A DNA stretch of 64,000 nucleotides from the NCBI GenBank assembly GCA_041661745.1, contig JBAZTR010000003.1, positions 91,007 to 155,006 on the forward strand, given 5' to 3'. Shown in pieces: positions 3,632 through 63,892 of the stretch (its first letter is position 1; the number at the start of each line of letters is the position of its first letter). The notes beneath the pieces are model-generated. The model was not told the origin of the DNA. It did no database searches and was given only the letters and a program-made list of their open reading frames with translations. Source of the stretch: Patescibacteria group bacterium. Lineage in GTDB: Bacteria > Patescibacteriota > Patescibacteriia > UBA9934 > GWF2-40-263. A program made the position numbers and the translations under genes.

Positions 3632-6208
3632 ATGAAGCAAAAAATCTGCCTCTTGGTGATTGGCGTGCTATTAATTTCTTCATTCAGTACAACCGACACA
3701 GCTGAGGCAGAAAATTCATGTGCCACCCCCGTCTTCTTTTCAGAAATCGGTTGGGCCGGATCATCAAAAGGCGCGGCTGATGAATGGCTGGAGTTGGCAA
3801 ATGCCGGAGAAACGGAATTCAACCTGACTGGTTGGATAATTGAAGGGGCCGGCACTAACAACTCGGCTCTCTCCCTACCTGAAGGCGTCATTATCTCTCC
3901 GCGCTCGACATACCTAGTCGCTAACTACAGCGCCGAGAGTGATAAATCGTCTTTGGCCACCCCGCCGAATTATGTGAATACAGCTATCTCGCTCTCGAAC
4001 TCAACTATTCATTTAATTCTAAAGGACCAAAACGGTTGTCTAATTGACGAAGCCGGTGACGGCGGTGCTCCATTCTTTGGCGGAACAGGAACAGAGGGAA
4101 CGGTTTCAATGATTCGTCTTGAACCAATAATCCAGGGGGCTCTACCCACAGCCTGGACAGCAAGCGAAACCTCTAATGGTTTCGACAATTCTATTGATTT
4201 GGGGACGCCAGGAACAATTAGTTGGGTAAATGTATTATCATCCTCGGTTGAACAAATTGTGGAGGAAACCATACCTCTACCTGAACCTCTCCCTGAAGAC
4301 GAGGGAGAAGCAGTGGAAGTAATCGAGGAAGTTATTCCTGAGACTACAGAACCAACAGTGACAGAAGAAATAATTGAAACAGAAATTATTCCCTCCGCAC
4401 AAGAGCAGCCTGAAGAAATAGAGGCTGAGGGCGAGGGAGAACTCGAAGAAATTATTGAGGAAGCAGAACTCGAAGAAGTTTCTGATCAAACGGTAATTTC
4501 ATATTCCGTCGGCGAACTGTTGATTAACGAATTTGTTTCTGATCCGGTGAGTGGGGAGAAAGAATGGGTTGAGGTGATAAATCCGAACAACAAAAATCTT
4601 TCTCTTGTTGGCTGGAAGGTCTCCGACGAATCAGGAAGAACTGTCCCTCTACCAGAAGTCGAACTTGGTTACGGGCAAGTCGCCGTGGCCGAATTTTCCT
4701 CGAGTACTCTGAAAAATAATGGTGACAAAATTAAAATTATTGCTCCGGACGAAACCGTGATTCATGAAATTGAATATGGCACGGCCTCGATTCCGACGAC
4801 GACTGATCCTTATTCAGTTGCTCGCGGGGCTGACGACAATTTCGTGGTAACTGAAACACCAACAAAGGGAAAAATGAATATCATTACAACCACAGTGACA
4901 ATAACTAAGACGACGACATGCGAGGTCTCCGTGGATGAAGAGGACGAAGTGGACGAGGAGGTTTCTTCAACAGAAATTATCGAAGAGACCGCGCTCCCAA
5001 ACATTCGTCTTTCCGAACTCTATCCCAACACCGATGGAGCCGACGCCACCGATGAATTCATTGAGCTGGAAAACTATGGCTCGGAGACAATTGATTTGTT
5101 TGGTCTGACCTTAAAAGATGCGGCCGAAAACGACTGGTCGTTTACCGACCATACCGAACTGGCCGCGGGGAAATTCCTAGTTATCAGCCGAACCGAATAT
5201 CAATTCGCTCTTAATAATTCGGGCAGTGAAACAGTGACACTTTATTCAACTGGTGGAACACTGCTCGACCAAATCCAATATGAAAACGCACCAAAAAAAT
5301 CAACCTATGCGCGCGACGGCAATATATGGCGTTGGACTTCAATCGTTACGCCAAATGAACCGAATCGCTTTTCGGAAACTGTCGAGTCAGAAGATAACGG
5401 ACTGGTTCGACAAGCTAGTACCGATATCAATAACGAAAGAGTTGATGCGTCAGAATCCACTGTCAGCGTAACCATTGCCGAAGCTCGTGGTCTAGCTAAG
5501 GACACCAAGGTAACAGTGGAAGGAATTGTTGCTGTTTCCCCTGGCATCTTTGGTCGACAAATCTTCTATCTATCCGACAACGTGGCTGGTATTCAGATTT
5601 ACAAATCTGATGGTAATTTTCCGGAACTGTTAGTCGGCGACCTGGTGGAATTAGGCGGCACTATCAGCTCTAACCGCGGTGAGCCGAGAATAAAGCTAAA
5701 TCAAACGGGTGAAATCTTGGTTGTCGCGGGCGAAACTGTTCTGGACATCACTGATCGTAAAATCGTGACCGAGGCGGAGGCCGGACAGCTCATAAGACTG
5801 GCCGGAATGGTCACAGAAAAATCTAGCGACCGTTTTACAATGGAAACCAGTGGTGGGTTGTCAGAAATAAGAATAAAAGAAAACACCGGAATCTCTTTGT
5901 CTGAACTTAAACCTGGAAGTCAAATTACTGTTACCGGGATTGTCGGACAATCAGAAGAAAACTATTTTCTTTTACCGCGCTCGGTTGATGACTTAGTTAT
6001 CGCCGTGGCCGTGGCTGCTGTTGAGTCGACTGTTCCCACTGAACCAACTGGCAAACAAACAGCCGAAACAGCGAACCAAAAGAATGCGATTTACATCGGC
6101 TCAGCTGTTATTGTCGGATTAATTATCTACGCCGTCAGTAAACGCCGCGGCCATAAAACAAAATCATATGAAAAAACCAACAAATTTTCTTTTGCTCCAA
6201 CAGGATGA
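3632..6208 (+). CDS. Large secreted surface protein with lamin-tail-domain (LTD) repeats, an acidic E/I/T-rich repeat region, an OB-fold (extracellular-nuclease-like DNA-binding) domain and a C-terminal TM anchor
   Basis: Signal peptide MKQKICLLVIGVLLISSFSTTDTAEA. Three LTD-like motifs (EWLELANAGE..LTGW, EWVEVINPNN..LVGWKV, EFIELENYGSE.IDL.GL). OB-fold-like segment VTVEGIVAVSPGIFGRQIFYLSDNVAGIQIY. C-terminal IYIGSAVIVGLIIYAVSKRR. The track ORF begins at 3548; the start at the signal peptide is 3632. Confidence 0.75.
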   Translation: MKQKICLLVIGVLLISSFSTTDTAEAENSCATPVFFSEIGWAGSSKGAADEWLELANAGETEFNLTGWIIEGAGTNNSALSLPEGVIISPRSTYLVANYSAESDKSSLATPPNYVNTAISLSNSTIHLILKDQNGCLIDEAGDGGAPFFGGTGTEGTVSMIRLEPIIQGALPTAWTASETSNGFDNSIDLGTPGTISWVNVLSSSVEQIVEETIPLPEPLPEDEGEAVEVIEEVIPETTEPTVTEEIIETEIIPSAQEQPEEIEAEGEGELEEIIEEAELEEVSDQTVISYSVGELLINEFVSDPVSGEKEWVEVINPNNKNLSLVGWKVSDESGRTVPLPEVELGYGQVAVAEFSSSTLKNNGDKIKIIAPDETVIHEIEYGTASIPTTTDPYSVARGADDNFVVTETPTKGKMNIITTTVTITKTTTCEVSVDEEDEVDEEVSSTEIIEETALPNIRLSELYPNTDGADATDEFIELENYGSETIDLFGLTLKDAAENDWSFTDHTELAAGKFLVISRTEYQFALNNSGSETVTLYSTGGTLLDQIQYENAPKKSTYARDGNIWRWTSIVTPNEPNRFSETVESEDNGLVRQASTDINNERVDASESTVSVTIAEARGLAKDTKVTVEGIVAVSPGIFGRQIFYLSDNVAGIQIYKSDGNFPELLVGDLVELGGTISSNRGEPRIKLNQTGEILVVAGETVLDITDRKIVTEAEAGQLIRLAGMVTEKSSDRFTMETSGGLSEIRIKENTGISLSELKPGSQITVTGIVGQSEENYFLLPRSVDDLVIAVAVAAVESTVPTEPTGKQTAETANQKNAIYIGSAVIVGLIIYAVSKRRGHKTKSYEKTNKFSFAPTG

Positions 6209-6404
6209 TTTTGAACGCGCGGCTTATGCCTATGGCATTCAACCGACCGTTTGCACTCTGCTCGGTGAAGTGGTCTACCGAAAGCTCCGCGCCGCCTGGC
6301 AGAATGGCTGGTGGCAAGCCATTGGTCGTTTAAGCACCAATGTCCTACCAGCCGAAACTAATAATTAACATAAAGACGCAAAAAAAATACGTCTCAAAAA
6401 ATAT

Positions 6405-30962: not shown

Positions 30963-31226
30963 TTATCTAGGAAACAATTGTTTGCCGGTCTCGTCAAAAA
31001 CCAACACGGCCAAAACCGGACAGGATTCAGCACCAAGAATAATATTCTGCAACTCTTCGTCAGTGACTTCGACTTCACGCTCGTAGGTCGGGCCACCGGG
31101 CGCTTGGCCGTGATCTAAAACATCGGCTTTGTTTTCGTTATTAAGCTGAAAGGTTTCCGGGGCCACGGTTACGCAAGCAGCCGCGCCGATACAAAGATCT
31201 GGATCGACTTTGATTCTTATTTTCAT
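30963..31226 (-). CDS. Ferredoxin (single [4Fe-4S] type)
   Basis: DPDLCIGAAACVTVAPETF ... ESCPVLA cysteine pattern. Confidence 0.65.
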   Translation of the reverse strand: MKIRIKVDPDLCIGAAACVTVAPETFQLNNENKADVLDHGQAPGGPTYEREVEVTDEELQNIILGAESCPVLAVLVFDETGKQLFPR

Positions 31227-31289
31227 AAAGAGAATTAAAGGGGATTAAAGAGAAGGAAAGGGAAGGAAAGTAGAAACTTTCCCTCTCTT

Positions 31290-31739
31290 TCACTCTCTTT
31301 CCAACTCTTTCCCTCCACTCAAATATTTTTCAATAGCATTACGTAAGGCCTTATCACACAAAACCGAACAATGAATTTTTCGCGGTGGCAGGCCGCTTAA
31401 ACGGTCAACAATCATTTGTGGGGTAATTTTTACCGCTTCATCGATGGTTAAACCGCCGTTTTCCAAACACATAACCGAACAAATTGAGGCCGCGGCAATG
31501 GCACTGGCACAACCAAAAGTTTTCCAAAGATAACCGACAATTTTTTTAGTGACCGGATCAATTTTTAACCACACTTTCATTTCATCACCACAAGCCGGCG
31601 AGCCGTAAACGCCGTAAGCATTAAAATCAGCTGGTGGATTTTCTTCTTTCAAAAAATTGCGTGGATTAAAAAAGTGATCTTTTACCGTGTCGCTGTAAAA
31701 CCAACTTTCAATTCCACATGAATCATTTACGTCGCCCAT
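31290..31739 (-). CDS. iscU: Fe-S cluster assembly scaffold, IscU/NifU-like
   Basis: Conserved Cys context GSPACGDEM, TFGCASAIAA, KIHCSVL. Confidence 0.8.
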   Translation of the reverse strand: MGDVNDSCGIESWFYSDTVKDHFFNPRNFLKEENPPADFNAYGVYGSPACGDEMKVWLKIDPVTKKIVGYLWKTFGCASAIAAASICSVMCLENGGLTIDEAVKITPQMIVDRLSGLPPRKIHCSVLCDKALRNAIEKYLSGGKELERE

Positions 31740-38575: not shown

Positions 38576-39694
38576 CTATTGTTTAATAGGCATAATAATA
38601 TACAACTGATCTTCTTGATTAAAAGGTTTTATAACACAGGGGTTTGAACCATCAATCATTTTAAAAGAAACATCTTCAGTTCCTATTGATTGAAGGCCGT
38701 CGAGAAGGTAACGAAAGTTTAAGGTGACGGAATTTTCAATCCCGGAAACTTCAATTTTGGTTGAGGCGGAGTTTTCGCCGCGCGAAGCATCGGCCGCACT
38801 GACTCGCAGTGATCCGCTTGGGTCGAAAAATATCGTCACATCAAAAAGACCGGAACGAGAAAACAAACTAGCGGTCTTAACGGTGTTTATAAGGTCTTCG
38901 CGATTAACCTTGGCTTCGGTTTGAAAATTTTGTGGAATAATCTGTTGATAATCCGGGAAGTTCCCCTCAATAACACGGGAAATTAACTCCACCGAACCGT
39001 AAGTAAAAACAATTTGGTTTTCTGACAAACTTATTTGGACTTCGTTTGGTGAATCTGAGGTGTCTTTAAAAAGGGAAAAGATTCGGTGGGCCTCAATAAC
39101 GGTTTTAACCGGGACAATAACCGAGGTTTCGCTGGCCGACTCGTTTGGCAAAACAACGGTCTTTTCAACCAAACGATAAGAATCAGTAGCTGCAATAATT
39201 AACTTATTTTTCTTAAACTGGAGTAATAAGCCTGAAAGCTCTGGTCTTGATTCGTTATTGGCCGCGGCAAAAACTGTTTGTGAAACCGCGTCCCGAAAAA
39301 GATCAACGGGTATTGTATAAACTTTTTCAGCGGAAACAGCCGGAACCAAAGGAAAGTCAGATGATGGTAATCCATTAATCTTAGTTTTATTATCCCCAGC
39401 TTCCAGGTGTAAAACGCTTTCTTCCACCTTTAAATCAATCTTTTCTTCTTTTAATAAGGAAATGTAATCGTAGAAAAGTTTTGAAGGAATGGTAATTTCG
39501 CCATCCTCATCAATCTTTCCCCTTACTAAACAACTAACCGCCATTTCCAAGTTTGTTGAAGTAAAACGAATATTCCCATTTTTTGCCACCAATAGAACAT
39601 TATTAAGAATAGGTAGTTGAATGTTCTTGGTAGAGAGGTGACTGGTTATTGCTAACCCCATTTGAAGATTCGTTTTTAAACAAGAAACTTTCAT
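38576..39694 (-). CDS. dnaN: DNA polymerase III beta sliding clamp
   Basis: Three-domain ~370 aa protein with a DnaN N-terminus; follows dnaA. Confidence 0.85.
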   Translation of the reverse strand: MKVSCLKTNLQMGLAITSHLSTKNIQLPILNNVLLVAKNGNIRFTSTNLEMAVSCLVRGKIDEDGEITIPSKLFYDYISLLKEEKIDLKVEESVLHLEAGDNKTKINGLPSSDFPLVPAVSAEKVYTIPVDLFRDAVSQTVFAAANNESRPELSGLLLQFKKNKLIIAATDSYRLVEKTVVLPNESASETSVIVPVKTVIEAHRIFSLFKDTSDSPNEVQISLSENQIVFTYGSVELISRVIEGNFPDYQQIIPQNFQTEAKVNREDLINTVKTASLFSRSGLFDVTIFFDPSGSLRVSAADASRGENSASTKIEVSGIENSVTLNFRYLLDGLQSIGTEDVSFKMIDGSNPCVIKPFNQEDQLYIIMPIKQ

Positions 39695-39745
39695 AACTAT
39701 AATTATCTTTTATATATATTATTTATAGTAATAGTAGTAGGTGTT

Positions 39746-39754
39746 GTGGATAGA
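39746..39754. promoter_or_regulatory. DnaA-box-like 9-mer TGTGGATAG in the dnaA-dnaN intergenic region
   Basis: 8 of 9 match to TGTGGATAA, next to the AT-rich tract tatatatattatttatagtaatagtag. Confidence 0.4.
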
Positions 39755-39934
39755 GTGGAAAAACGAGGTTTTGGTCTAAAACAAGCGAAAAAAGAGATAG
39801 AGAAAAAGTGTGTAAGAAGTCAATTAAAAAGTAGTTAACAGTGAATAGAATTTACTCTTTTTTGATGGGGTTATTTCTTTAAGGTTTCTTCCCCCCGATA
39901 GACACAGACTTATTCACCTCTTATCCTTTGCGTT

Positions 39935-41338
39935 TTAAACGTAAATTCTTTGTTTTATTACCTCAACATCTTGTTGCAACTTTTCATCGATAACAATTTG
40001 ATTGGAAATCTTCTCATAAGCGTGCATAGCCGTGGTGTGATCACGTCCGCCCAGTTCAGAACCAATAGAAGGAAAACTAGATTTCATTTCCTCTCTCATT
40101 ATATACATGATAATTTGGCGCGGGAAAGCTAGACGTTTTTCACGACTCTTTCCCAAAAGATCTTCTATTTCTAATTCAAAATATCCGGCCACGGTTTGAA
40201 TAAGTTGTCTTGGGGTAACACTCTTTTTGTTTTTAGTTGGTAGAAAACTAGCCAAGATAGATTTAACTGATTCGATTGTTGGAACGGTGTTTTTAAATTG
40301 ATGAAGAGCAATAATTTTGTTCAAAGCCCCTTCGAGTTCACGGACATTACTTTGAATCATTGTGCCAATATGGTGAAGAATACTTTGATCCAAAATATAG
40401 TTCTTTTCGCGACATTTGGCTTGTAAAATAGCAATTCTTGTTTCAAAATCAGGGCTGCCGATATCGGCCATCATTCCCATTTCAAAACGTGACGACAAGC
40501 GTTGTTCAAGATCGGGAATGGCTTTGGGTGGGCGATCAGAAGTTAAAATAATCTGTTTGTTGTTTTGATGAAGAGTGTTAAAGGTGTGGAAAAATTCTTC
40601 CTGAGTTCCTTCCTTCCCTGTTATGAATTGGATGTCGTCAATTAAAAGAGCATCAACAGTTCGATAAATATCTTTAAACTCTTTCATTTTATTTGTGCGG
40701 ATAGCGTAAATATAATCATTAGTGAATTTTTCACTAGTGACATAAAGAATTCGTGCGTTGCTGTTCTGTTTGGCTATTTCGTTTCCAACAGCTTGTAAAA
40801 GGTGGGTTTTGCCCAAACCAACCCCACCATAAAGGAAGAGAGGGTTATAAACACTGCCGGGTTGGCTGGCTACAGCCTGGGCCGCGGCATGGGCAAGTTC
40901 GTTTTGTTTTCCAACAATAAAGCTGGAGAAGGAATATTTTGGGTTTAAAGAAACTTCGATGGTTTCGTGTTGGCTAATTGGGGAAGATGACGGTTGAGAT
41001 TGATAAATAGCTGATTTTGGTGCCTCCTGAGCTTCAAAAACAATATCCATACCTTCTGCCGGGTCGATCGAAACCGGCATGCCTGGTTTTGTTTCGACTT
41101 TGTAAACAATACTTTTGATTTTGGCGTTGTTGGCTAACACCTGGATCATGTTGTGAATTTCCTTGTGATATTTTTTTTCTAACCAAGTTTTGGTAAAAGT
41201 GTTGGGAACACCAACAATGACCTCGTTTTCGCTAAAATTAGCAATAAAAGTATTTTTAAACCAAGTGGTAAAGTTGGCCTTACTAAGTTTTAGCTCTAGT
41301 TCGCCTAGAACCGCCTGCCAAAGTTCATTGGTATTCAT
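39935..41338 (-). CDS. dnaA: Chromosomal replication initiator DnaA
   Basis: N-terminal ELWQAVLGELELKLSKANFTTWF, AAA+ Walker A GGVGLGKTHLL and the C-terminal DNA-binding domain. Confidence 0.9.
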   Translation of the reverse strand: MNTNELWQAVLGELELKLSKANFTTWFKNTFIANFSENEVIVGVPNTFTKTWLEKKYHKEIHNMIQVLANNAKIKSIVYKVETKPGMPVSIDPAEGMDIVFEAQEAPKSAIYQSQPSSSPISQHETIEVSLNPKYSFSSFIVGKQNELAHAAAQAVASQPGSVYNPLFLYGGVGLGKTHLLQAVGNEIAKQNSNARILYVTSEKFTNDYIYAIRTNKMKEFKDIYRTVDALLIDDIQFITGKEGTQEEFFHTFNTLHQNNKQIILTSDRPPKAIPDLEQRLSSRFEMGMMADIGSPDFETRIAILQAKCREKNYILDQSILHHIGTMIQSNVRELEGALNKIIALHQFKNTVPTIESVKSILASFLPTKNKKSVTPRQLIQTVAGYFELEIEDLLGKSREKRLAFPRQIIMYIMREEMKSSFPSIGSELGGRDHTTAMHAYEKISNQIVIDEKLQQDVEVIKQRIYV

Positions 41339-41415
41339 ATGGAGCATGGGGCCCAAAAGGGCAAAAAAGGTCGAAATTTGTTAGTTTTTGTTTACTTCGG
41401 CTTCTAGTTTACCAT

Positions 41416-56728: not shown

Positions 56729-58999
56729 TTAATGGTTGTCGTCGCGATTTCGACCAAAGAATGGTCGGCGGCCGCCTTGTGGGCGATCGCCTTGCGGGCG
56801 GCTGTTATCTGAACCAGTACCACCATTGCCGGTTTGTGGCGGAGTGGCTGGTTTTTCAGGATAAACATTGCCTGGCGCGTCTTTCATAGACAAGTTGATA
56901 CGACCCATGTCGTCAATTTCCGAGACTTTCACAAAGACCTCGTCACCAACTTTAACAATATCAGAAACTTTTTCAACTCGCCATGGGGCCATGCGACTAA
57001 TGTGCACCAAACCTTCTTGTTTTGGTAGAACTTCAACAAAAGCGCCGAAATCCATAAGGCGAGTAACCTTACCTTTGAATAATTCGCCGGCCACAACCTC
57101 GCGGGTTAGGTTTTTAACCCATTCAAAGGCCTTTTGAGCCCCCTCAGCATTGGTTGAGGTGATACAAACCAAACCATCATCTTCAATATCAATGGCTTGT
57201 ACGCCAGTTGTAGCAATTATTTCATTAATAATCTTGCCGCCAGGACCAATGACATCGCCAATCTTCTCTGGATTAATACGAAGAGTGATAATGCGCGGGG
57301 CATAAGGCGAAAGGTCGGCTCGCGGGGCTGGGATAGTTGTGGTAATAACCTCAAGAATTTGTAAACGCGCCTCTTTAGCCTGATTAACTGCGGCTTCAAC
57401 CATTTCCATAGTCAAACCATCGGTCTTGGTATCCATTTGAATGGCGGTGATACCAGCTTTTGAACCGGCAATCTTAAAGTCCATACCACCAACACTGTCT
57501 TCCAAGTCTTGAAGGTCGGTAAAAACTTTCCAATCACCTTTTTTGTTGCTAACCAAACCCATGGCAATACCAGCTACCGGCGCTTTAATCGGTACACCAG
57601 CGTCCATTAAGGACAAAGTAGCACAACAAGTGGAGGCCATTGAGCTAGAACCGTTGGAACCAAGCACTTCGGAGACCACACGAATGGTATAAGGAAAGGT
57701 TTCCTTGTCAGGCATCATCGGAACCAAGGCTTTTTCGGCCAAAGCACCGTGGCCAATGTCGCGGCGTGACGGTCCGCGCATTGGTTTAACTTCACCAACG
57801 GAAAATGGCGGGAAATTATAATGATGAAAGAAGCGTTTGGTGCCCACAAGTTCCATGCCATCAAGGGTTTGTTCGTCGCCAGGAGCGCCAAGAGTGGTAA
57901 TAGACACAACTTGTGTTTCACCGCGTTTGAAATGACCAGAACCATGGACACGTGGGAAGATGGCAACCTCGCCGAAAAGTGTACGGATTTCGTTCATACC
58001 GCGGCCATCAACACGTTTCCCTTCTTCAAGCATGGCTCGGCTGATTTCTTCCTCGATAACTTCTTCAACAATAGCAAAGGCGTATTTTTGATCGTCTTTG
58101 GAAACTTCTTTAGTGGTTAAAAACTCACCAAGTAATTCCTTAACATGGGATTTTTCCAAACGGCGTTCAACTTTACTGGCCTTTGGTTCGGAAAAGAAAA
58201 GTTCTTTTGTTTTTTCAATAATAAACGGGCGAGCCATAGCTTCAACAACCTCGCGACGTTCTTTCTTTTGAGTTTCTTCGTTATTTTTTGGAGCCAAGAT
58301 GTCACGCTTTGGTTTTCCCACTTCCTTGCGTACTTGTTCGATAAGTTTTAATGGCTCGCTAATATGTTTTAAGCCAAAACGGAAGCCTTCGATAACCGCT
58401 TCTTCGGAGGCTTCATTGGCACCAGCCTCAACCATAATCACACGATCGGCTGAACCAGCAAAAGCCAAGTCGAGAATCGACTTGAGGCGCGCTTCGTAGC
58501 TTGGGTTAAGAACTTTTTCGCCATTAATTTCACCAACACGAACGCCGGCAATCGGACCGTTCCACGGAATGTCGCTGATATGTAAGGCACAGCTAGCAGC
58601 AATGATTCCGGCAATATCCGGATCGTTTTCGCCGTCAAAAGCCAAGCAGGAAACAATAACCTGAATGTCGTTACGCATGCGATCGTCGAAGAGTGGGCGC
58701 AAACCGCGATCGATGGAACGGCCGACCAAAACCGCTTCGTCAGTTGGACGACCTTCTTTTTTAATAAAGCGTGAACCCTTGATGCGACCAGCGGCGTAGA
58801 GTTTTTCCTCGTACTCAACTTGTAGTGGGAAGAAGTCTAATCCTTCGCGCAAAGTGTCGCTCATGGTGGCTGTGGCAATAACCACAGTGTCGCCGTATTG
58901 CACGGTACAAGCCCCGTTGGCCTGCTCGGCAAAACGACCGGTTTCGATGGTGAGGTTTTTACCGCCCCACTCGGTTGAAAAGCGTTTAATTTCGCTCAT
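56729..58999 (-). CDS. pnp: Polyribonucleotide nucleotidyltransferase
   Basis: Two RNase PH domains, KH and S1 domains, and a C-terminal G/R-rich tail; 756 aa. Confidence 0.9.
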   Translation of the reverse strand: MSEIKRFSTEWGGKNLTIETGRFAEQANGACTVQYGDTVVIATATMSDTLREGLDFFPLQVEYEEKLYAAGRIKGSRFIKKEGRPTDEAVLVGRSIDRGLRPLFDDRMRNDIQVIVSCLAFDGENDPDIAGIIAASCALHISDIPWNGPIAGVRVGEINGEKVLNPSYEARLKSILDLAFAGSADRVIMVEAGANEASEEAVIEGFRFGLKHISEPLKLIEQVRKEVGKPKRDILAPKNNEETQKKERREVVEAMARPFIIEKTKELFFSEPKASKVERRLEKSHVKELLGEFLTTKEVSKDDQKYAFAIVEEVIEEEISRAMLEEGKRVDGRGMNEIRTLFGEVAIFPRVHGSGHFKRGETQVVSITTLGAPGDEQTLDGMELVGTKRFFHHYNFPPFSVGEVKPMRGPSRRDIGHGALAEKALVPMMPDKETFPYTIRVVSEVLGSNGSSSMASTCCATLSLMDAGVPIKAPVAGIAMGLVSNKKGDWKVFTDLQDLEDSVGGMDFKIAGSKAGITAIQMDTKTDGLTMEMVEAAVNQAKEARLQILEVITTTIPAPRADLSPYAPRIITLRINPEKIGDVIGPGGKIINEIIATTGVQAIDIEDDGLVCITSTNAEGAQKAFEWVKNLTREVVAGELFKGKVTRLMDFGAFVEVLPKQEGLVHISRMAPWRVEKVSDIVKVGDEVFVKVSEIDDMGRINLSMKDAPGNVYPEKPATPPQTGNGGTGSDNSRPQGDRPQGGRRPFFGRNRDDNH

Positions 59000-59090
59000 A
59001 TATAGATTGTGTCGCGCCGAAGCTCAAGATCTCGATTAGGTCGAAGATCTTTATGTCTCGACGCGACGGTTAATTATTTTTTTATCTTAA

Positions 59091-59720
59091 TTACCACTTC
59101 CAAAATTCTTCATCCGCACCGTTCTCTTCTTCCCCCTCGCCCTCAGGGAGAGGGGTTAGGGGAGAGGGTTTTTCAACCAATATCTCGCCACCTTTAGGTG
59201 GATGCATGGGACCGCGGCGGATTGGGCCGATAAGGAATTTCTTTCCATTTTCTGACATGTTTATGTAATGATCGGCCGCTTCAACCAGTTTGGCTGAGGT
59301 GGTTTCGCGGAAGCTCATGACCTCAACTATCCGACCACGATTTTTAGCATAATCAACCAAAGCCGTAAAGTCACCGTCGCCCGAGACTAAAACCACTACA
59401 TCTAACATATCAAGCATACGAACAATGTCGATGGTTAGGCCAACATCCCAATCGGCCTTCTTTTGACCGGATTCGTATTGCATTAATTCCTTTTCGCGGG
59501 TTTCGATTCCCAAGTTTTGCAGGGCGTCGAGGAAAGGTTTTTCATCTTCTGACTTAGTGCGAACCACATAAGCAATGGCGCGAATTAGTTTGCGATCACC
59601 GACCGCTTCTTTAACAATGTTGCCAAAATTAACCTTGCGCGCAAAAACATTGCGGGCGCTGTAATACATGTTTTGGGTGTCGATGAAAACACCGACGCGT
59701 TGATTGGGGTGGCTTATCAT
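59091..59720 (-). CDS. NYN-domain (LabA-like) protein
   Basis: VGVFIDTQNMYY...VVLVSGDGDFTALV PIN-like NYN signature. Confidence 0.7.
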   Translation of the reverse strand: MISHPNQRVGVFIDTQNMYYSARNVFARKVNFGNIVKEAVGDRKLIRAIAYVVRTKSEDEKPFLDALQNLGIETREKELMQYESGQKKADWDVGLTIDIVRMLDMLDVVVLVSGDGDFTALVDYAKNRGRIVEVMSFRETTSAKLVEAADHYINMSENGKKFLIGPIRRGPMHPPKGGEILVEKPSPLTPLPEGEGEEENGADEEFWKW

Positions 59721-59869
59721 ATTTAAGGGTTTTGAAGGGTTGGGAAGTGTTCTGAAGGGTTAAGAAGGGCTTTGGAATATTTATATTAAAGAAATATAGT
59801 TCAATTAACCCTTCCAAACCCTTTAAAGCTCTTCAGAGCCCTTCATTTAATTGGGGAGGGCTTTGGATT
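59721..59869. repeat. Palindromic element copy A built from 10-bp phased GAAGGGTT-type repeats around an AT-rich centre
   Basis: Left arm ttGAAGGGTT gGGAAGTGTT cTGAAGGGTT aAGAAGGGCT ttggaatatt; centre tatattaaagaaatatagttcaatt; right arm is the inverse (aacccttccaaaccctttaaagctcttcagagcccttca). About 85% identical to copy B. Confidence 0.7.
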
Positions 59870-60220
59870 TTAAATACTTCTGATTAGTTGGTTTAAGAAG
59901 AAGCTAGTATTTTTCGCTTTCAATTCCAATTTTTTAAATTTATCTTCGTCTATATATTTTTGTCTATAAGAGAAACTTATCAGAAAAATCGTTTCTGTTA
60001 AAGAGGCGCGGGCTATTACCAAGAATCTTTTGAAATCCTGTTTGGTTCCCCGCGAGTGACCTTCGACAATATTTAAGACAACTGAAAGGGCGGCACGTCT
60101 TAATTGTGATGTAACATTGTACTGTTCCTCTTTTGGAAAAAAGAATGTTGCCGTGTAAATGTTTTCCAACAAATCATCGGCTTTCTGCCAAACTAAAAGG
60201 TTTTCGTAAGGATACTTCAT
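59870..60220 (-). CDS. Four-helix-bundle protein (TIGR02436; 23S rRNA intervening-sequence protein family)
   Basis: YENLLVWQKADDLLENIYTATFFFPKEEQYNVTSQLRRAALSVVLNIVEG is the family signature. Start set at MKYP; the longer track ORF runs into repeat copy B. Confidence 0.7.
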   Translation of the reverse strand: MKYPYENLLVWQKADDLLENIYTATFFFPKEEQYNVTSQLRRAALSVVLNIVEGHSRGTKQDFKRFLVIARASLTETIFLISFSYRQKYIDEDKFKKLELKAKNTSFFLNQLIRSI

Positions 60221-60345
60221 ATCGTGTTTGGAAGTGTCTTGAAGTGTTGGGAAGGGCTTTGGAATATTTATATTAAAGAAATTTAGTTCAATAACCCTTC
60301 TAAACCCTTTTAAGCCCTTCAGAACCCTTCCTAACCCTTTAAAAA
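60221..60345. repeat. Palindromic element copy B (same family as 59721-59869)
   Basis: gtttggaagtgtcttgaagtgttgggaagggctttggaatatttatattaaagaaatttagttcaataacccttctaaacccttttaagcccttcagaacccttcctaaccc. Confidence 0.7.
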
Positions 60346-60376
60346 AACCTCGCATCTGGGGACACGAGGTTTTTTG
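60340..60376. terminator. Bidirectional terminator
   Basis: aaaaaaacctcg-catctggggaca-cgaggtttttt. Confidence 0.65.
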
Positions 60377-60379
60377 AAA

Positions 60380-60643
60380 TTACTTCAATCCAAGTTCGTC
60401 CTTTAATTTCTGCCAAGCCTTTTTGTCTTCGCGTTCCAAGTAGGAAAGCAAGCGGCGGCGTTCGTTAACTTTTTTGATAAGACCGCGGCGGCTGGAGAAA
60501 TCTTTTTTGTGCATTTTAAGGTGCTCGGTGAGCTCCTTAACTTCGGCCGTGAGAAGGGCGGCTTGCACCTGCGGCGAACCGGTGTCCGAGGCATGGGTGC
60601 GGAACTTCTCGATAATTTTTTGTTTCTTTTGCGGGTCGAGCAT
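60380..60643 (-). CDS. rpsO: 30S ribosomal protein S15
   Basis: TGSPQVQAALLTAEVKELTEHLKMHKKDFSSRRGLIKKVNERRRLLSYL aligns with S15. Confidence 0.9.
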   Translation of the reverse strand: MLDPQKKQKIIEKFRTHASDTGSPQVQAALLTAEVKELTEHLKMHKKDFSSRRGLIKKVNERRRLLSYLEREDKKAWQKLKDELGLK

Positions 60644-60756
60644 ATTTGCTTTGTGTCGATCTCCCTAGCCTGGGGGACTCAATCCCCGGGCCAAGCAAGG
60701 CGACAATGGTTATTAATTACGAAGGGAGTTTAGCTTAAGTTACGCAGAATGTCAAT

Positions 60757-60785
60757 AATTGACGTTTTGTGTATTTTTTGTTAAA
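60757..60785 (+). promoter_or_regulatory. Promoter TTGACG - 17 nt - TAAATT upstream of the high-GC membrane-protein gene
   Basis: AT-rich native-looking promoter immediately before the GC-rich ORF. Confidence 0.4.
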
Positions 60786-60825
60786 TTACTTCGTCGTTCT
60801 CTAACAATCTTCCTCGGAGTCGCAA

Positions 60826-61975: not shown

Positions 61976-62461
61976 TTATTTTTTCTTTTTAAAAATCATC
62001 AGGTATGTGTCAGAATATTTTTTTCTATGGACGGTTTTAATAGTTGTGAAACCAACTTTTTTGTAACACTGAATAGCGTGTTCGTTATTGGTAAGCACTT
62101 CCAGTTGTATAAGGTTTTCGCCAGGAAATTTTTTGAAAAACCATTTTATGGCTTTATTCATGGAGATCGCCCCAATTCCCTGCCCCCAGAATTTCTTTTC
62201 ACCGATGGCGATGTAGATTTCAAAATGTTTTTTCCGCGGTTTCTTTTGAATCAAAATGTGCCCAATTGGTTTTTTGTCCGCGGTGATTATGAAATCGAAT
62301 TTATCAGAATCTTCTAAATGTCTTTTAAGAATTTTGTCGACTTCTTTTGGTTCAATCGGGCCGTCTTTTTCAGAAGTTAGTTTCCGTATTTCGTCATCGT
62401 TCCACCATTTATAAAAGAGGGGAAAATGAGAGGTTTTGAGTTTGATTAGGCTGATGATCAT
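61976..62461 (-). CDS. GNAT family N-acetyltransferase
   Basis: FWGQGIGAISMNKAIKWFF acetyl-CoA binding motif; 161 aa. Confidence 0.65.
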   Translation of the reverse strand: MIISLIKLKTSHFPLFYKWWNDDEIRKLTSEKDGPIEPKEVDKILKRHLEDSDKFDFIITADKKPIGHILIQKKPRKKHFEIYIAIGEKKFWGQGIGAISMNKAIKWFFKKFPGENLIQLEVLTNNEHAIQCYKKVGFTTIKTVHRKKYSDTYLMIFKKKK

Positions 62462-63531
62462 ACCCCCACTTTAAAATTGCAGGTGTCGCCATCGCGCATT
62501 GTGTAATTTTTTCCTTCAGTGCGTAATTTGCCGGCTTCGCGCGCGCCAGATTCACCAAGCTCAACAAAATCTTTCCAGTCAATAATCTCGGCACAGATAA
62601 AAGCCTTTTCAAAATCCGTGTGAATAACACCGGCCGCCTGTGGGGCTTTAGTCCCCTTCTTAATAGTCCAAGCGCGAGATTCTTTTTCGCCAGAAGTTAA
62701 GAAAGTAATAAGGTCGAGGAGTTCGTAGCACTTCAAAATCATGCGGTCGAGGCCGGAACGACTTAGACCAAGCGACTCGAGGAAAGTTTTTTGTTCCTCG
62801 GCTGGCATTTCCATTATTTCTGATTCTATTTTTACGCTTAAGGGTAAAGCTAAACGATCGGGACCAAGCGGACTTTGCCAATTCGGATCAGCCGCAGAAG
62901 CCTCGTCAACATTGATAACGTAAAGCACTGGCTTGAGGGTTAGAAGTTGCATTCCTTTGATGGCTTTTTGTTCATCTTCGGAAAGTTCAACCAGACGAGC
63001 CTGCTTTCCAGCTTGAATAGCAAGATTTATTTTTTCCAAAGCACTGGCCTCTTCTTCTTTTTCTTTAGTCTTGCCAGCTTTCAATTCACCTTGCAGGCTA
63101 TGGAGACGTTTTTGAACAACATCAAGGTCAGCCATGGCTAATTCTAATTCAATAATTTCCACGTCCCTGATCGGATCAACATCGCCGCTAACATGGTGGA
63201 CATTCGGATCCTTGAAAGCGCGTACCACATGGGCAATCATGTCGACCTCGCGGATGTTGGCCAAGAATTTGTTTCCAAGCCCCTCGCCTTTATGTGCCCC
63301 GGCCACCAAGCCGGCGATGTCGACAAACTCGATGGCCGTGGTGATGGTCTTTTGTGATTTGGAAACTCGTGACAGGGCTTGTAGGCGCTCGTCGGGAACT
63401 TCAACAATACCAACGTTCGGTTCGATGGTGCAGAAAGGAAAGTTTTCACAAGGCACCTGTTTTTTAGTCAGGGTTTTGAAAAGGGTGGATTTGCCAACGT
63501 TGGGCAGGCCGACGATGCCGACTTGTAGCAT
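62458..63531 (-). CDS. ychF: Ribosome-binding ATPase YchF (Obg-family GTPase)
   Basis: GIVGLPNVGKSTLF G1 motif, the TGS domain C-terminus ...RDGDTCNFKVGV; 357 aa. Confidence 0.9.
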   Translation of the reverse strand: MLQVGIVGLPNVGKSTLFKTLTKKQVPCENFPFCTIEPNVGIVEVPDERLQALSRVSKSQKTITTAIEFVDIAGLVAGAHKGEGLGNKFLANIREVDMIAHVVRAFKDPNVHHVSGDVDPIRDVEIIELELAMADLDVVQKRLHSLQGELKAGKTKEKEEEASALEKINLAIQAGKQARLVELSEDEQKAIKGMQLLTLKPVLYVINVDEASAADPNWQSPLGPDRLALPLSVKIESEIMEMPAEEQKTFLESLGLSRSGLDRMILKCYELLDLITFLTSGEKESRAWTIKKGTKAPQAAGVIHTDFEKAFICAEIIDWKDFVELGESGAREAGKLRTEGKNYTMRDGDTCNFKVGV

Positions 63532-63534
63532 AGG

Positions 63535-63592
63535 AGGGTTTGGAAGGGTTTAGAAGAGTTAAGAAGGGCTGGGAAGGGCTTTGTGTCGATTG
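63535..63592. repeat. Third (partial) copy of the phased GAAGGGTT decamer repeat, upstream of ychF
   Basis: GGAAGGGTTT AGAAGAGTTA AGAAGGGCTG GGAAGGGCTT then tgtgtcgat; the 13-mer gctttgtgtcgat also sits at 60648-60660 upstream of rpsO. Confidence 0.55.
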
Positions 63593-63660
63593 ATAATATA
63601 GCTTTTTGCGGTAATTATGTCGAGAAACAAAAAACGGCCATTTCTATTATGGTCGTTTTT

Positions 63661-63736: not shown

Positions 63737-63744
63737 ATTTTTTT

Positions 63745-63843
63745 AGACCGTTAGCGAAGCTGTTCTTTTCAGCTGCGAGGTCGAGCTAAGCTCGACGAAG
63801 TCCGCCGAAGCCCGAGGGGCGAAGGCGGAAGCTAACGGCCCAT
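63745..63843 (-). repeat. tRNA-Ala upstream element: duplicate of the tRNA 5' end (GGGCCGTTAGCT) followed by a TCCGCC...GGCGGA hairpin and further hairpins
   Basis: In tRNA orientation: GATGGGCCGTTAGCT-TCCGCC-TTCGCCCCTCGGGCTTC-GGCGGA-CTTCGTCGAGCTTAGCTCGAC..., then about 40 nt AT-rich spacer and the intact tRNA. Confidence 0.5.
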
Positions 63844-63892
63844 CTTCTGTGGCAATAGAATAACTAATTTTTATTTTTTGGTCAAGACGGCT

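Follow-up and report, generated by a model that had tools for sequence, protein, structure and literature searches.

Among the intervening sequences (IVSs) of bacterial ribosomal RNA, the one in Coxiella 23S rRNA carries an open reading frame (ORF) for the protein S23p in the loop of a 28-bp terminal stem; variable-number purine-rich tandem heptamers precede its ATG, the first of them being the site of RNase III cleavage (PMC4990558). ORFs of this family, 23S_rRNA_IVP, are also found in 16S and 23S rRNA insertions of the Candidate Phyla Radiation (CPR) (PMC11270868). Here we describe a gene of the same four-helix-bundle (4HB) family that lies between rpsO and pnp in a 64-kb stretch of DNA (the window). 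The host lineage is given as Uhrbacteria (CPR/Patescibacteria), and the nearest named homologues of the NYN-domain protein encoded next to the 4HB gene come from Candidatus Uhrbacteria. To our knowledge, the only 4HB/S23p cases studied sit in rRNA, where the ORF may not be expressed; the role of these ORFs in rRNA IVSs, and how they arrive in hairpin loops, has been a question since the early 1990s. We tentatively read the present gene as an rRNA-IVS-type cassette lodged in an mRNA operon, its stem probably cut by RNase III, a reading that we prefer and that could well be right.

The 4HB gene (59870-60220, minus strand; 116 amino acids) is enclosed by one long interrupted inverted repeat, the downstream arm of which doubles as the leader of the NYN gene. 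The upstream, purine-rich arm (60293-60344, minus strand) reads, in sense orientation, AAAGGGTTAG GAAGGGTTCT GAAGGGCTTA AAAGGGTTTA GAAGGGTTAT (Tandem Repeats Finder: period 10, 5.2 copies); the downstream, pyrimidine-rich arm (59721-59773, minus strand) reads AAAGCCCTTC TTAACCCTTC AGAACACTTC CCAACCCTTC AAAACCCTTAAAT and is followed directly by the NYN ATG. Each of these outer arms belongs to an imperfect palindrome. As a preliminary description of the locus had it, the 4HB gene is indeed bracketed by two such palindromes. In each of them an AT-rich core lies between arms phased at 10 bp (GAAGGGYT/ARCCCTTC); copy A (59721-59869) directly adjoins the ATG of NYN, and copy B (60221-60345) that of the 4HB gene. 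The best inverted pair is, nevertheless, that of the outer arms (60293-60344 with 59721-59777; 84% over 43 nt, -53.9 kcal/mol), pairing within a copy being weaker (-28.8 kcal/mol for copy B, -39.8 kcal/mol for copy A). Both the minimum free energy and the centroid fold of the 634-nt sense RNA close on the outer arms and leave the 4HB mRNA as a loop (z = -7.35). In such folds the outer arms would close an imperfect stem of about 50 bp around the whole 4HB gene.

As in the rRNA IVSs of Leptospira, Coxiella and Brucella, then, a PF05635 ORF lies in the loop of a long stem formed by flanking complements (here 60293-60344 and 59721-59773) and is co-oriented with its host transcript; ORF-less versions of the stems exist as well. 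The present cassette differs in its place, which is an mRNA operon, between the protein-coding genes rpsO and NYN, and not a 23S or 16S rRNA helix, and in its arms, both of which are tandem arrays of 40-55 nt. A search of the whole window against Rfam at the gathering threshold returned tRNAs only, and no rRNA; in E-value mode, 58900-60800 gave only sub-threshold matches to generic, miRNA-like hairpins.

The genes across 56.7-63.6 kb of the window all lie on the minus strand. Directly upstream of the cassette is rpsO, for ribosomal protein S15 (60380-60643; PF00312, 5.1e-31), and downstream are the NYN gene, of LabA/DUF88 type (59091-59720; PF01936, 1.7e-34; 7247 homologues found), and pnp (56729-58999). 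The 4HB protein (23S rRNA IVS protein, S23p or Avd-like family) belongs to PF05635/TIGR02436: it matches the full 23S_rRNA_IVP domain (2.7e-32; 111.6 bits, the cutoff being 33.8), its residues 6-110 covering profile positions 1-105 of 106, and carries the conserved R-x3-S-x3-N-x2-E motif, here RAALSVVLNIVE. It also matches the XCC0516 pentamer, PDB 2GSC (1.1e-17), and has an isoelectric point (pI) of 9.5. The sequence is identical to NCBI MFA6132141.1, a record of 161 amino acids with an N-terminal over-extension of 45. Gene callers and this public record begin at ATG 60355, the 45 extra residues being translated copy B; the true start appears to be ATG 60220, because the homologues (116 amino acids) and the Pfam domain begin at that point.

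Read on the mRNA strand, each palindrome consists of a purine-rich arm (GAAGGGYTNN, 4-5 units), the AT-rich core, a pyrimidine-rich arm (NNARCCCTTC, 3-5 units) and an ATG. The arms are built of tandem 10-nt units. The two-unit pattern GAAGGGYTNNGAAGGG, with at most two mismatches allowed, has 17 matches in the window, where shuffled sequence would be expected to give 0.97; 16 of these 17 matches sit in three clusters. In copy B the core (60261-60292, minus strand) includes a 22-mer identical in both copies, and is followed by a degenerate inner pyrimidine arm (60221-60260, minus strand; period 10, 4 copies) that ends in AAAGCCCTTCCCAACACTTCAAGACACTTCCAAACACGAT immediately before the 4HB ATG. 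The left half of this core, ATTGAAYNNNATTTCTTTAA, is conserved in L132, a relative described below (L numbers designate sequences other than the window). Copy A has an inner purine arm found by inverted-repeat search (59807-59845, minus strand), TGAAGGGCTCT GAAGAGCTTT AAAGGGTTTG GAAGGGTTAA, and a core at 59774-59806 (minus strand). The two copies had been put at about 85% identity; they are similar, at 83% across 88 nt without gaps, with 32 nt (GAAGGGCTTTGGAATATTTATATTAAAGAAAT) fully identical, while the last 24 nt of what had been called copy A (59846-59869, minus strand) are a separate remnant. This remnant, AATCCAAAGCCCTCCCCAATTAAAT, stands right after the 4HB stop and consists of a core end, one pyrimidine unit and TTAAAT; it resembles both the core-to-arm junction TTCCAAAGCCCTTCCCAA and the pre-ATG end CCCTTAAAT.

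Such features could also be those of a miniature inverted-repeat transposable element (MITE) or similar duplicating element, with the arms as terminal inverted repeats around the AT-rich core and the 4HB gene, functionally unrelated, merely lying between two insertions. There are 2.5 copies of one sequence family within 4 kb, and TTAAAT stands at either end of copy A (CCAATTAAAT before GAAGGG, and ACCCTTAAAT before ATG). Two independent Logan assemblies of the same organism (L002 1-20, L003 1-20) end at the same base, equivalent to window positions of about 59773-59792, so the core common to copies A and B, with its 22-32 identical nucleotides, breaks short-read assemblies. Moreover, samples of a related lineage (L132 versus L135) carry different numbers of an 81-bp module of the upstream arm region, and comparable paired arrays in Geobacter are hot spots of insertion-sequence integration. 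The preliminary description had called for a search for further copies: one was found, the one-armed array before ychF discussed below, and there was none in the remaining ~70 kb of the metagenome contig, 76 kb long, from which the window comes. In a scan of JGI metagenomes the exact 22-nt core had four matches, none with repeat arms and all taken as chance. A degenerate three-unit pattern, RAAGNGYTNNRAAGGGYTNNRAAGNG, matched at least 118 stretches in 185,579 genomes, with no Patescibacterium among the 80 titles listed, though this pattern is too loose to be specific. Neither the called genes within +/-10 kb nor the window's 25 ORFs of at least 250 amino acids include a transposase, an integrase or a reverse transcriptase. 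Neisseria Correia elements and the repetitive extragenic palindromes and their mosaics (REP/BIME) are MITEs with internal promoters whose hairpin transcripts are cut by RNase III, and they share with the present palindromes a length of ~125-150 bp, an AT-rich centre, a position in spacers by start codons and the formation of RNA hairpins. Here, in contrast, the 2.5 copies are clustered, the arms are tandem arrays in place of unique terminal inverted repeats, the copies are orthologous and no dispersed family was found. Since the arrays are site-specific and orthologous between species, and since MITE-like insertion leaves unexplained why 11 of 12 4HB genes (see below) are enclosed by complementary arrays of differing units, we consider this explanation quite unlikely.

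Comparison with relatives separates the cassette from its neighbours. In four related lineages (L004, L005/6, L007/8 and L150; NYN 78-89% identical) the order is rpsO, terminator, NYN, pnp, with no 4HB gene. Because of this order, NYN does not belong to the insert; it is ancestral at this position, only the 4HB gene being extra. Thus rpsO and pnp, supposed earlier to be normally adjacent and here parted by two inserted genes, are not adjacent in this clade, and of the presumed insertion the 4HB gene stands and NYN does not. The NYN leaders of L004 and L150 are pyrimidine-rich with a 9-nt period, (GCCTYTCNN)x5, and lack a purine arm, which suggests that the leader array is older at this site than the 4HB gene and the purine arm. 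In a further lineage an 89%-identical 4HB protein (P0122; L131-L136) is encoded at the same place between rpsO and NYN. There the terminator is followed by 2-3 modules of purine arm, each with a left core half, and by the 4HB ATG; nine AACCCTTCNN units then fill the space between the 4HB stop and the NYN ATG. With outer arms alone around the ORF, the conserved unit is one long inverted repeat and not a pair of palindromes. Two palindromes are seen in the window because the palindrome (arms plus AT-rich core) has, by this comparison, been partly duplicated on both sides of the ORF; their layout appears to be a local rearrangement or partial duplication of a simpler enclosing repeat, specific to this genome. 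Relatives with the insert and without repeats, which together with repeats confined to this genome would have spoken against a cassette, were not encountered: L131-L136 are flanked, and the repeats occur elsewhere too.

Between the window and its 89%-identical orthologue at the same site (L132), the 4HB gene has a ratio of non-synonymous to synonymous divergence (dN/dS) of 0.048, with a dS of 1.17. For the same pair of lineages the values are 0.038 and 1.36 for NYN, and 0.082 and 0.81 for rpsO. The 4HB gene is thus under strong purifying selection, functional and vertically inherited since the lineages split, in contrast to the Coxiella IVS ORF, which is decaying. Because its dS resembles that of NYN and rpsO, the gene is neither recently mobile nor recently arrived, and to that extent the mobility suggested by the preliminary description finds no support. 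ORF-less palindromes also lie in the NYN-pnp spacers of L004 (3683-3806), L007 (3041-3186) and L132 (5030-5118); their units differ, being, in the same order, ACGAATNN (period 8), AGTCGTGG/CCACGACT (period 8) and GGGGTTA/TCCCCTA-type (period ~7), and the core of the L007 element, TTTCTTAAATATTTAAAGAAAT, resembles the cores of copies A and B.

A second site in the window shows the hairpin without the gene. Repeat and inverted-repeat analysis found an "empty" hairpin between nifU (31290-31739) and a ferredoxin gene (30963-31226; 87 amino acids) at 31227-31316 (minus strand), composed of a purine arm of GGGAAAGAGA-type, 10-nt periodic units (31277-31316), a TTTCTA loop (31271-31276) and a pyrimidine arm (31227-31270). 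The 5' arm takes in the nifU stop codon, and the 3' arm extends as far as the ATG of the ferredoxin gene. In the orthologous region of a close relative (L137; nifU 85% and ferredoxin 92% identical, same surrounding genes) the arms are 92% and 86% identical by alignment, and the 6-nt loop is replaced by positions 5986-6364, made up of 15 nt, a 363-nt 4HB ORF and 1 nt. This filled cassette folds like the one between rpsO and NYN, closing on its arms. The comparison indicates a discrete gain or loss of the 4HB ORF exactly at the hairpin apex, of which two genomes give no direction.

The enclosing arrays recur. We examined 12 4HB loci, seven from Patescibacteria (the window locus included) and five from cyanobacterial plasmids, and at 11 of them a purine-rich tandem array stands upstream of the 4HB gene and its complement downstream, between co-directional genes. 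Apart from the window and L137 (between nifU and ferredoxin; 53-nt arms, 79% complementary, GGGAAAGAGA-type units), the Patescibacterial sites are L139/L140 (MamF-like gene and prfB; GGTTAAGGGR units, with a 20-nt unit-number polymorphism between the two), L141 (epsH and epsI; period-8 units), L142 (yebC and ruvC; CGTTACACGCTTCA-type units) and L143 (rluD and cmk; 96% complementary over 23 nt). On plasmids, inverted arrays surround the 4HB genes of Calothrix, Anabaena (between cas6 and cas4), Picosynechococcus (between cas10 and cmr3) and Trichormus; the exception is a Pseudanabaena plasmid (L147), with direct arrays of (AAAGCTA)x10 on the upstream and (AAAGCCA)x10 on the downstream side. Flank duplex energies of the seven Patescibacterial 4HB genes exceeded those of ~130 ORFs taken as controls at the same loci (Mann-Whitney test; p = 3.5e-5 for flanks of 70 nt and p = 1.4e-5 for flanks of 140 nt). 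The upstream flank is the more purine-rich at 12/12 loci (sign test p = 2.4e-4). The unit sequence differs at every site, with periods of 7-10 nt, and 14 at one locus. The repeat-gene-repeat structure first described thus stands, and it recurs around 4HB genes at five other Patescibacterial loci and on five cyanobacterial plasmids, but the repeat itself is not specific to 4HB genes. For the junctions at prfB, ruvC, cmk and epsI, a local tblastn search turned up no orthologous site without the ORF.

Several observations concern these loci individually. The plasmid 4HB genes of L145, L146, L147 and L149 sit inside cas operons (cas6-cas4, cas10-cmr3) and a conjugation operon. The prfB gene, for RF2 (L139/L140 5431-5500), begins directly after the pyrimidine arm and has the programmed +1 frameshift site GGGGG TTG CTT TGA C; the L139 annotation omits its first part. 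G3-N7 spacing fits a G-quadruplex in the window, in L139, in L144 and in the NYN-pnp element of L132; as a general explanation the G-quadruplex was dropped, the units of L141, L142, L146, L149 and L004 having no G-runs. An integron cassette was rejected as well: there is no integrase within +/-10 kb, and the GTT-containing units (GTTAAGA, GTTAGGA) have a final A and so do not match the attC core GTTRRRY.

Similar arrays have been described outside this family. In Geobacter metallireducens, tandem repeats of 7-9 nt, 3-5 to an array, form inverted array pairs between consecutive genes; 24, 21 and 8 such pairs are listed, called putative global regulator binding sites of classes 1-3 (PMC2700814). 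Like those studied here, they are inverted pairs of short tandem repeats between co-directional genes with a variable distance between the arms, and their class 3 unit, of TTCTGAA-type, is similar to the arms that enclose the 4HB gene on the Trichormus plasmid (L149); they differ in forming multi-copy families of one sequence per genome, whereas the units here differ by site. A text search of 17 supplementary files of PMC2700814 returned no mention of IVS, S23 or four-helix bundle. 4HB genes inside cas operons have been noted, with the repeats unmentioned (PMC3936711), and PF05635 is the commonest family next to diversity-generating retroelements (DGRs) (PMC10053308). The DGR protein Avd (bAvd) shares with the 4HB protein a homologous pentameric four-helix-bundle fold, which binds nucleic acid and reverse transcriptase; a DGR also comprises a reverse transcriptase and a template/variable repeat pair, however, and neither turned up within +/-10 kb of the present locus or among the window's large ORFs. 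A DGR/Avd reading was therefore rejected, with no RVT domain in the same range (25 ORFs of at least 250 amino acids) and a bAvd score of 23.8 against a cutoff of 40. The short tandem heptamer repeats of cyanobacteria known as STRRs can also be likened to the paired arrays. We found no paper linking repeat arrays to non-rRNA 4HB genes; an earlier mention in cyanobacterial genome papers is possible.

The variability of the arrays allows for an explanation without function, by which slippage of short tandem repeats and hairpin-driven template switching build inverted arrays, and keep them uniform, in the short spacers of compact genomes, and ORF insertions survive best at the least harmful places, the apices. 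The unit-number polymorphisms of 20 nt (L139 versus L140) and 81 bp (L132 versus L135) are of the kind expected, each site has its own unit and period, neither strand is favoured, and arrays enter coding ends, as in the nifU C-terminus within the purine arm and the palindromic NYN tail at 59130-59175. On the other hand, units and arrays are conserved between lineages near synonymous saturation, and arrays end exactly at start codons at many loci. Neutral processes should also give both polarities; the five ORF-less palindromes, however, share with the 12 4HB loci a purine arm at 5' and a pyrimidine arm at 3' (17/17), a polarity which shows that the opposite type is absent and not which strand matters, as a purine-pyrimidine palindrome reads the same way on both strands. 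For that last reason, polarity is not taken here as a sign of sense-RNA function. We regard a functionless by-product as improbable, more so than MITE-like spread.

A further array stands before ychF (62458-63531). Its 5' leader (63532-63583, minus strand) is the third, one-armed copy mentioned above, five pyrimidine units of AACCCTTC-type and 10 nt running up to ATG 63531, with no complementary arm and an RNA fold predicted to be unstructured (0 kcal/mol). A promoter, TCGACA-17-TATATT (63595-63623, by eye), precedes it and is conserved in L131, where positions 4480-4602 hold the same promoter, an 8-unit array and a short upstream purine motif. Because the same units form the ychF leader in both genomes, the GAAGGGYT-type repeat is not tied to 4HB genes. 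The main rival to our reading is, accordingly, that the arrays are binding sites, operators or RNA leaders, for a repeat-recognising protein, each 7-10-nt unit being one site for a multimeric factor. Candidates for the factor are the 4HB protein, which is basic and pentameric, and RNA binders of KH/S1 type, among them polynucleotide phosphorylase (PNPase); the arrays (AACCCTTCNN)5 and (GAAGGGTTNN)5 would be its targets, 4HB, NYN and ychF would form one regulon through arrays that flank the core promoter and occupy the leaders, and arm complementarity would merely reflect sites in inverted orientation.

For such binding speaks the conservation of the unit AACCCYTC in two lineages at dS ~1.2, common to the unlinked NYN and ychF leaders, together with the existence of one-armed arrays and of the directly flanked 4HB gene in L147, and with wobble pairing that favours neither strand. 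Of the 12 4HB proteins, ten are basic (pI 8.7-9.5); the family assembles into rings of five (PDB 2GSC), a unit number also seen in several arrays, and the similar arrays of Geobacter metallireducens are annotated as putative global-regulator sites (PMC2700814). Against it, unit counts are not fixed at five (4, 8, 9 and 10 are also seen), and with a period of 7-10 nt (14 once) and a unit differing per locus each 4HB paralogue would need its own specificity. Some arrays, moreover, lack a 4HB neighbour, namely those of the NYN-pnp spacers in L004 and L007 (within the stretches fetched) and of the nifU-ferredoxin hairpin in the window, and binding is putative for all family members outside DGRs. 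We hold this rival to be unlikely, with MITE-like spread, neutral slippage and terminator function less likely than it.

In E. coli, the hairpin between rpsO and pnp is the RNase III site at which pnp autoregulation starts. The present locus resembles it in operon neighbourhood, in having a long spacer or leader hairpin and a terminator after rpsO, and, presumably, in the expression of downstream genes by read-through and from their own promoter; there is no sequence relationship, and the E. coli hairpin has no tandem-repeat arms and no ORF in its loop. A more likely functional analogue is a separate hairpin of the Uhrbacteria in the pnp leader (59003-59080, minus strand; GTCGCGTCGAGAC...GCTTCGGCGCGAC, window form GTCGCGTCGAGAC...GCGCGAC), which has no Rfam match. 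Counterparts, CCGTCCCTCCGAGAC...GCCTCAGAGGGAC (also written CCGTCCCTCCGAGAC...TCGAG.TCTTAAGCCTCAGAGGGAC), are conserved in sequence in L004 (3815-3885), L005 (10663-10735), L007 (3207-3275) and L150 (4294-4362). This leader is a candidate PNPase autoregulatory or RNase III hairpin of the Uhrbacteria.

The intrinsic terminator of rpsO, a hairpin followed by a T-run and usable both ways (60338-60379, minus strand), is among the inverted repeats found, was read as a terminator by eye and has counterparts, again hairpin and T-run after rpsO, in L004, L005, L007, L132 and L150. The preliminary description had offered the palindromes themselves as a terminator module, and as long hairpins between genes they might be bidirectional terminators or insulators between rpsO, 4HB and NYN. 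A terminator scan, which passed over the 60338-60379 hairpin owing to its loop-length rule, found no T-run or terminator-like site after copy A or copy B, and neither palindrome has terminator features. With a separate conserved terminator already after rpsO, a 3' arm that runs up to the next start codon and a ychF copy without any hairpin, we judge termination by the palindromes to be very improbable.

On our preferred reading, that of an IVS-type cassette, the outer arms would pair in rpsO read-through transcripts spanning the region, leaving the 4HB mRNA as a loop. By analogy with 23S rRNA IVSs and the E. coli rpsO-pnp hairpin, RNase III would cut the stem, and the cut would excise or uncouple the insert; the flanking genes would keep working, so that an insert at the apex would do the operon little harm. 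The stem would, in addition, occlude the 4HB start region. At four loci (L139, L145, L146, L149) a Shine-Dalgarno-like motif stands 6-10 nt ahead of the 4HB ATG, supplied by the last purine unit, and there the stem would sequester the 4HB ribosome-binding site. Transcripts beginning in the AT-rich cores would carry the unstructured pyrimidine leader only and might give direct expression of 4HB and NYN. The copy B core has, on the sense strand, a weakly promoter-like TTGAAC-17-AATATT (8/12 consensus matches, read by eye). A consensus promoter scan of the cores returned antisense candidates only, at 9/12; for copy B it reports TTGGGA-16-TATATT, the first hexamer lying just outside 60261-60292, and the copy A core has a plus-strand promoter-like TTGGAA-17-TATAGT.

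Several points weigh against this reading. RNase III cleavage and co-transcription of both arms are presumed. The intrinsic terminator parts rpsO from the cassette, and core promoters, if real, would give transcripts without the 5' arm, from which no stem could form. We found no G-U versus C-A asymmetry in favour of the sense RNA, the sense strand being the more stable in 5/16 elements; with no strand bias, pairing could be kept at the DNA level. The conservation of AACCCYTC at NYN and ychF at dS ~1.2 points to sequence-specific recognition and not to pairing alone. Lastly, there are one-armed arrays (ychF here, the NYN leaders of L004 and L150), and the L147 4HB gene is flanked by direct and not inverted arrays.

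The locus shows IVS-like architecture in ordinary CPR operons, with an ORF clearly under purifying selection, and the orthologous empty hairpin of the same window sets the insertion point to the nucleotide. That 11 of 12 4HB genes sit between complementary arrays suggests that "intervening-sequence" cassettes are also resident in ordinary operons. A broader and more speculative proposal, which we think unlikely, is that PF05635 genes are widespread hairpin-apex cassettes, bare ORFs gained or lost at tandem-repeat stem loops in rRNA helices and in mRNA operons (here rpsO-NYN, nifU-ferredoxin, prfB, ruvC, cmk and the cas operons), and that the 4HB pentamer may recognise the flanking arrays, regulating them or aiding RNA- or hairpin-directed insertion. 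If true, this would unify rRNA IVSs, the 4HB genes of cas operons and the paired arrays of Geobacter and cyanobacteria. Predictions drawn from the locus are that RNase III excises an mRNA "intervening sequence", that the 4HB protein binds the arrays and that gain and loss at the apex can be polarised on a phylogeny.

Some further features of the interval and the window were noted. Upstream of rpsO, a scan gives the promoter TTGACA-17-TAAACT (60755-60727), followed by a GC-rich structured leader, GGCCCGGGGATTGAGTCCCCCAGGC (region 60644-60760), which may be an S15 autoregulatory element; the motif CGACACAA(AG) is repeated just upstream of rpsO, ychF and pnp. The 3' end of NYN (59125-59175; tail ...EKPSPLTPLPEGEGEEE...) is a G/C-rich near-palindrome with GGGAGAG/GGGGTTAGGGGAGAGGG repeats, and this tail is longer than, and unlike, that of the 200-amino-acid L132 orthologue; a repeat array may have been absorbed into the NYN coding sequence at this end. 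At tRNA-Ala(GGC) (63737-63850), the first 13 nt, TGGGCCGTTAGCT, are repeated ~100 nt upstream with two GC-rich hairpins between, and in L005 the 3' end of the tRNA (TGGTCCACCA) is duplicated around a hairpin; such duplications may be the scar of an insertion in or beside the tRNA gene. With dnaA and dnaN at 38576-41356 and AT-rich, repeat-bearing spacers at 39700-39935, the window probably spans the chromosomal replication origin. Finally, Shine-Dalgarno motifs are missing from many of the window's genes, and in several a TATAAT box stands 6-11 nt ahead of the ATG, suggestive of leaderless transcripts or very short leaders.

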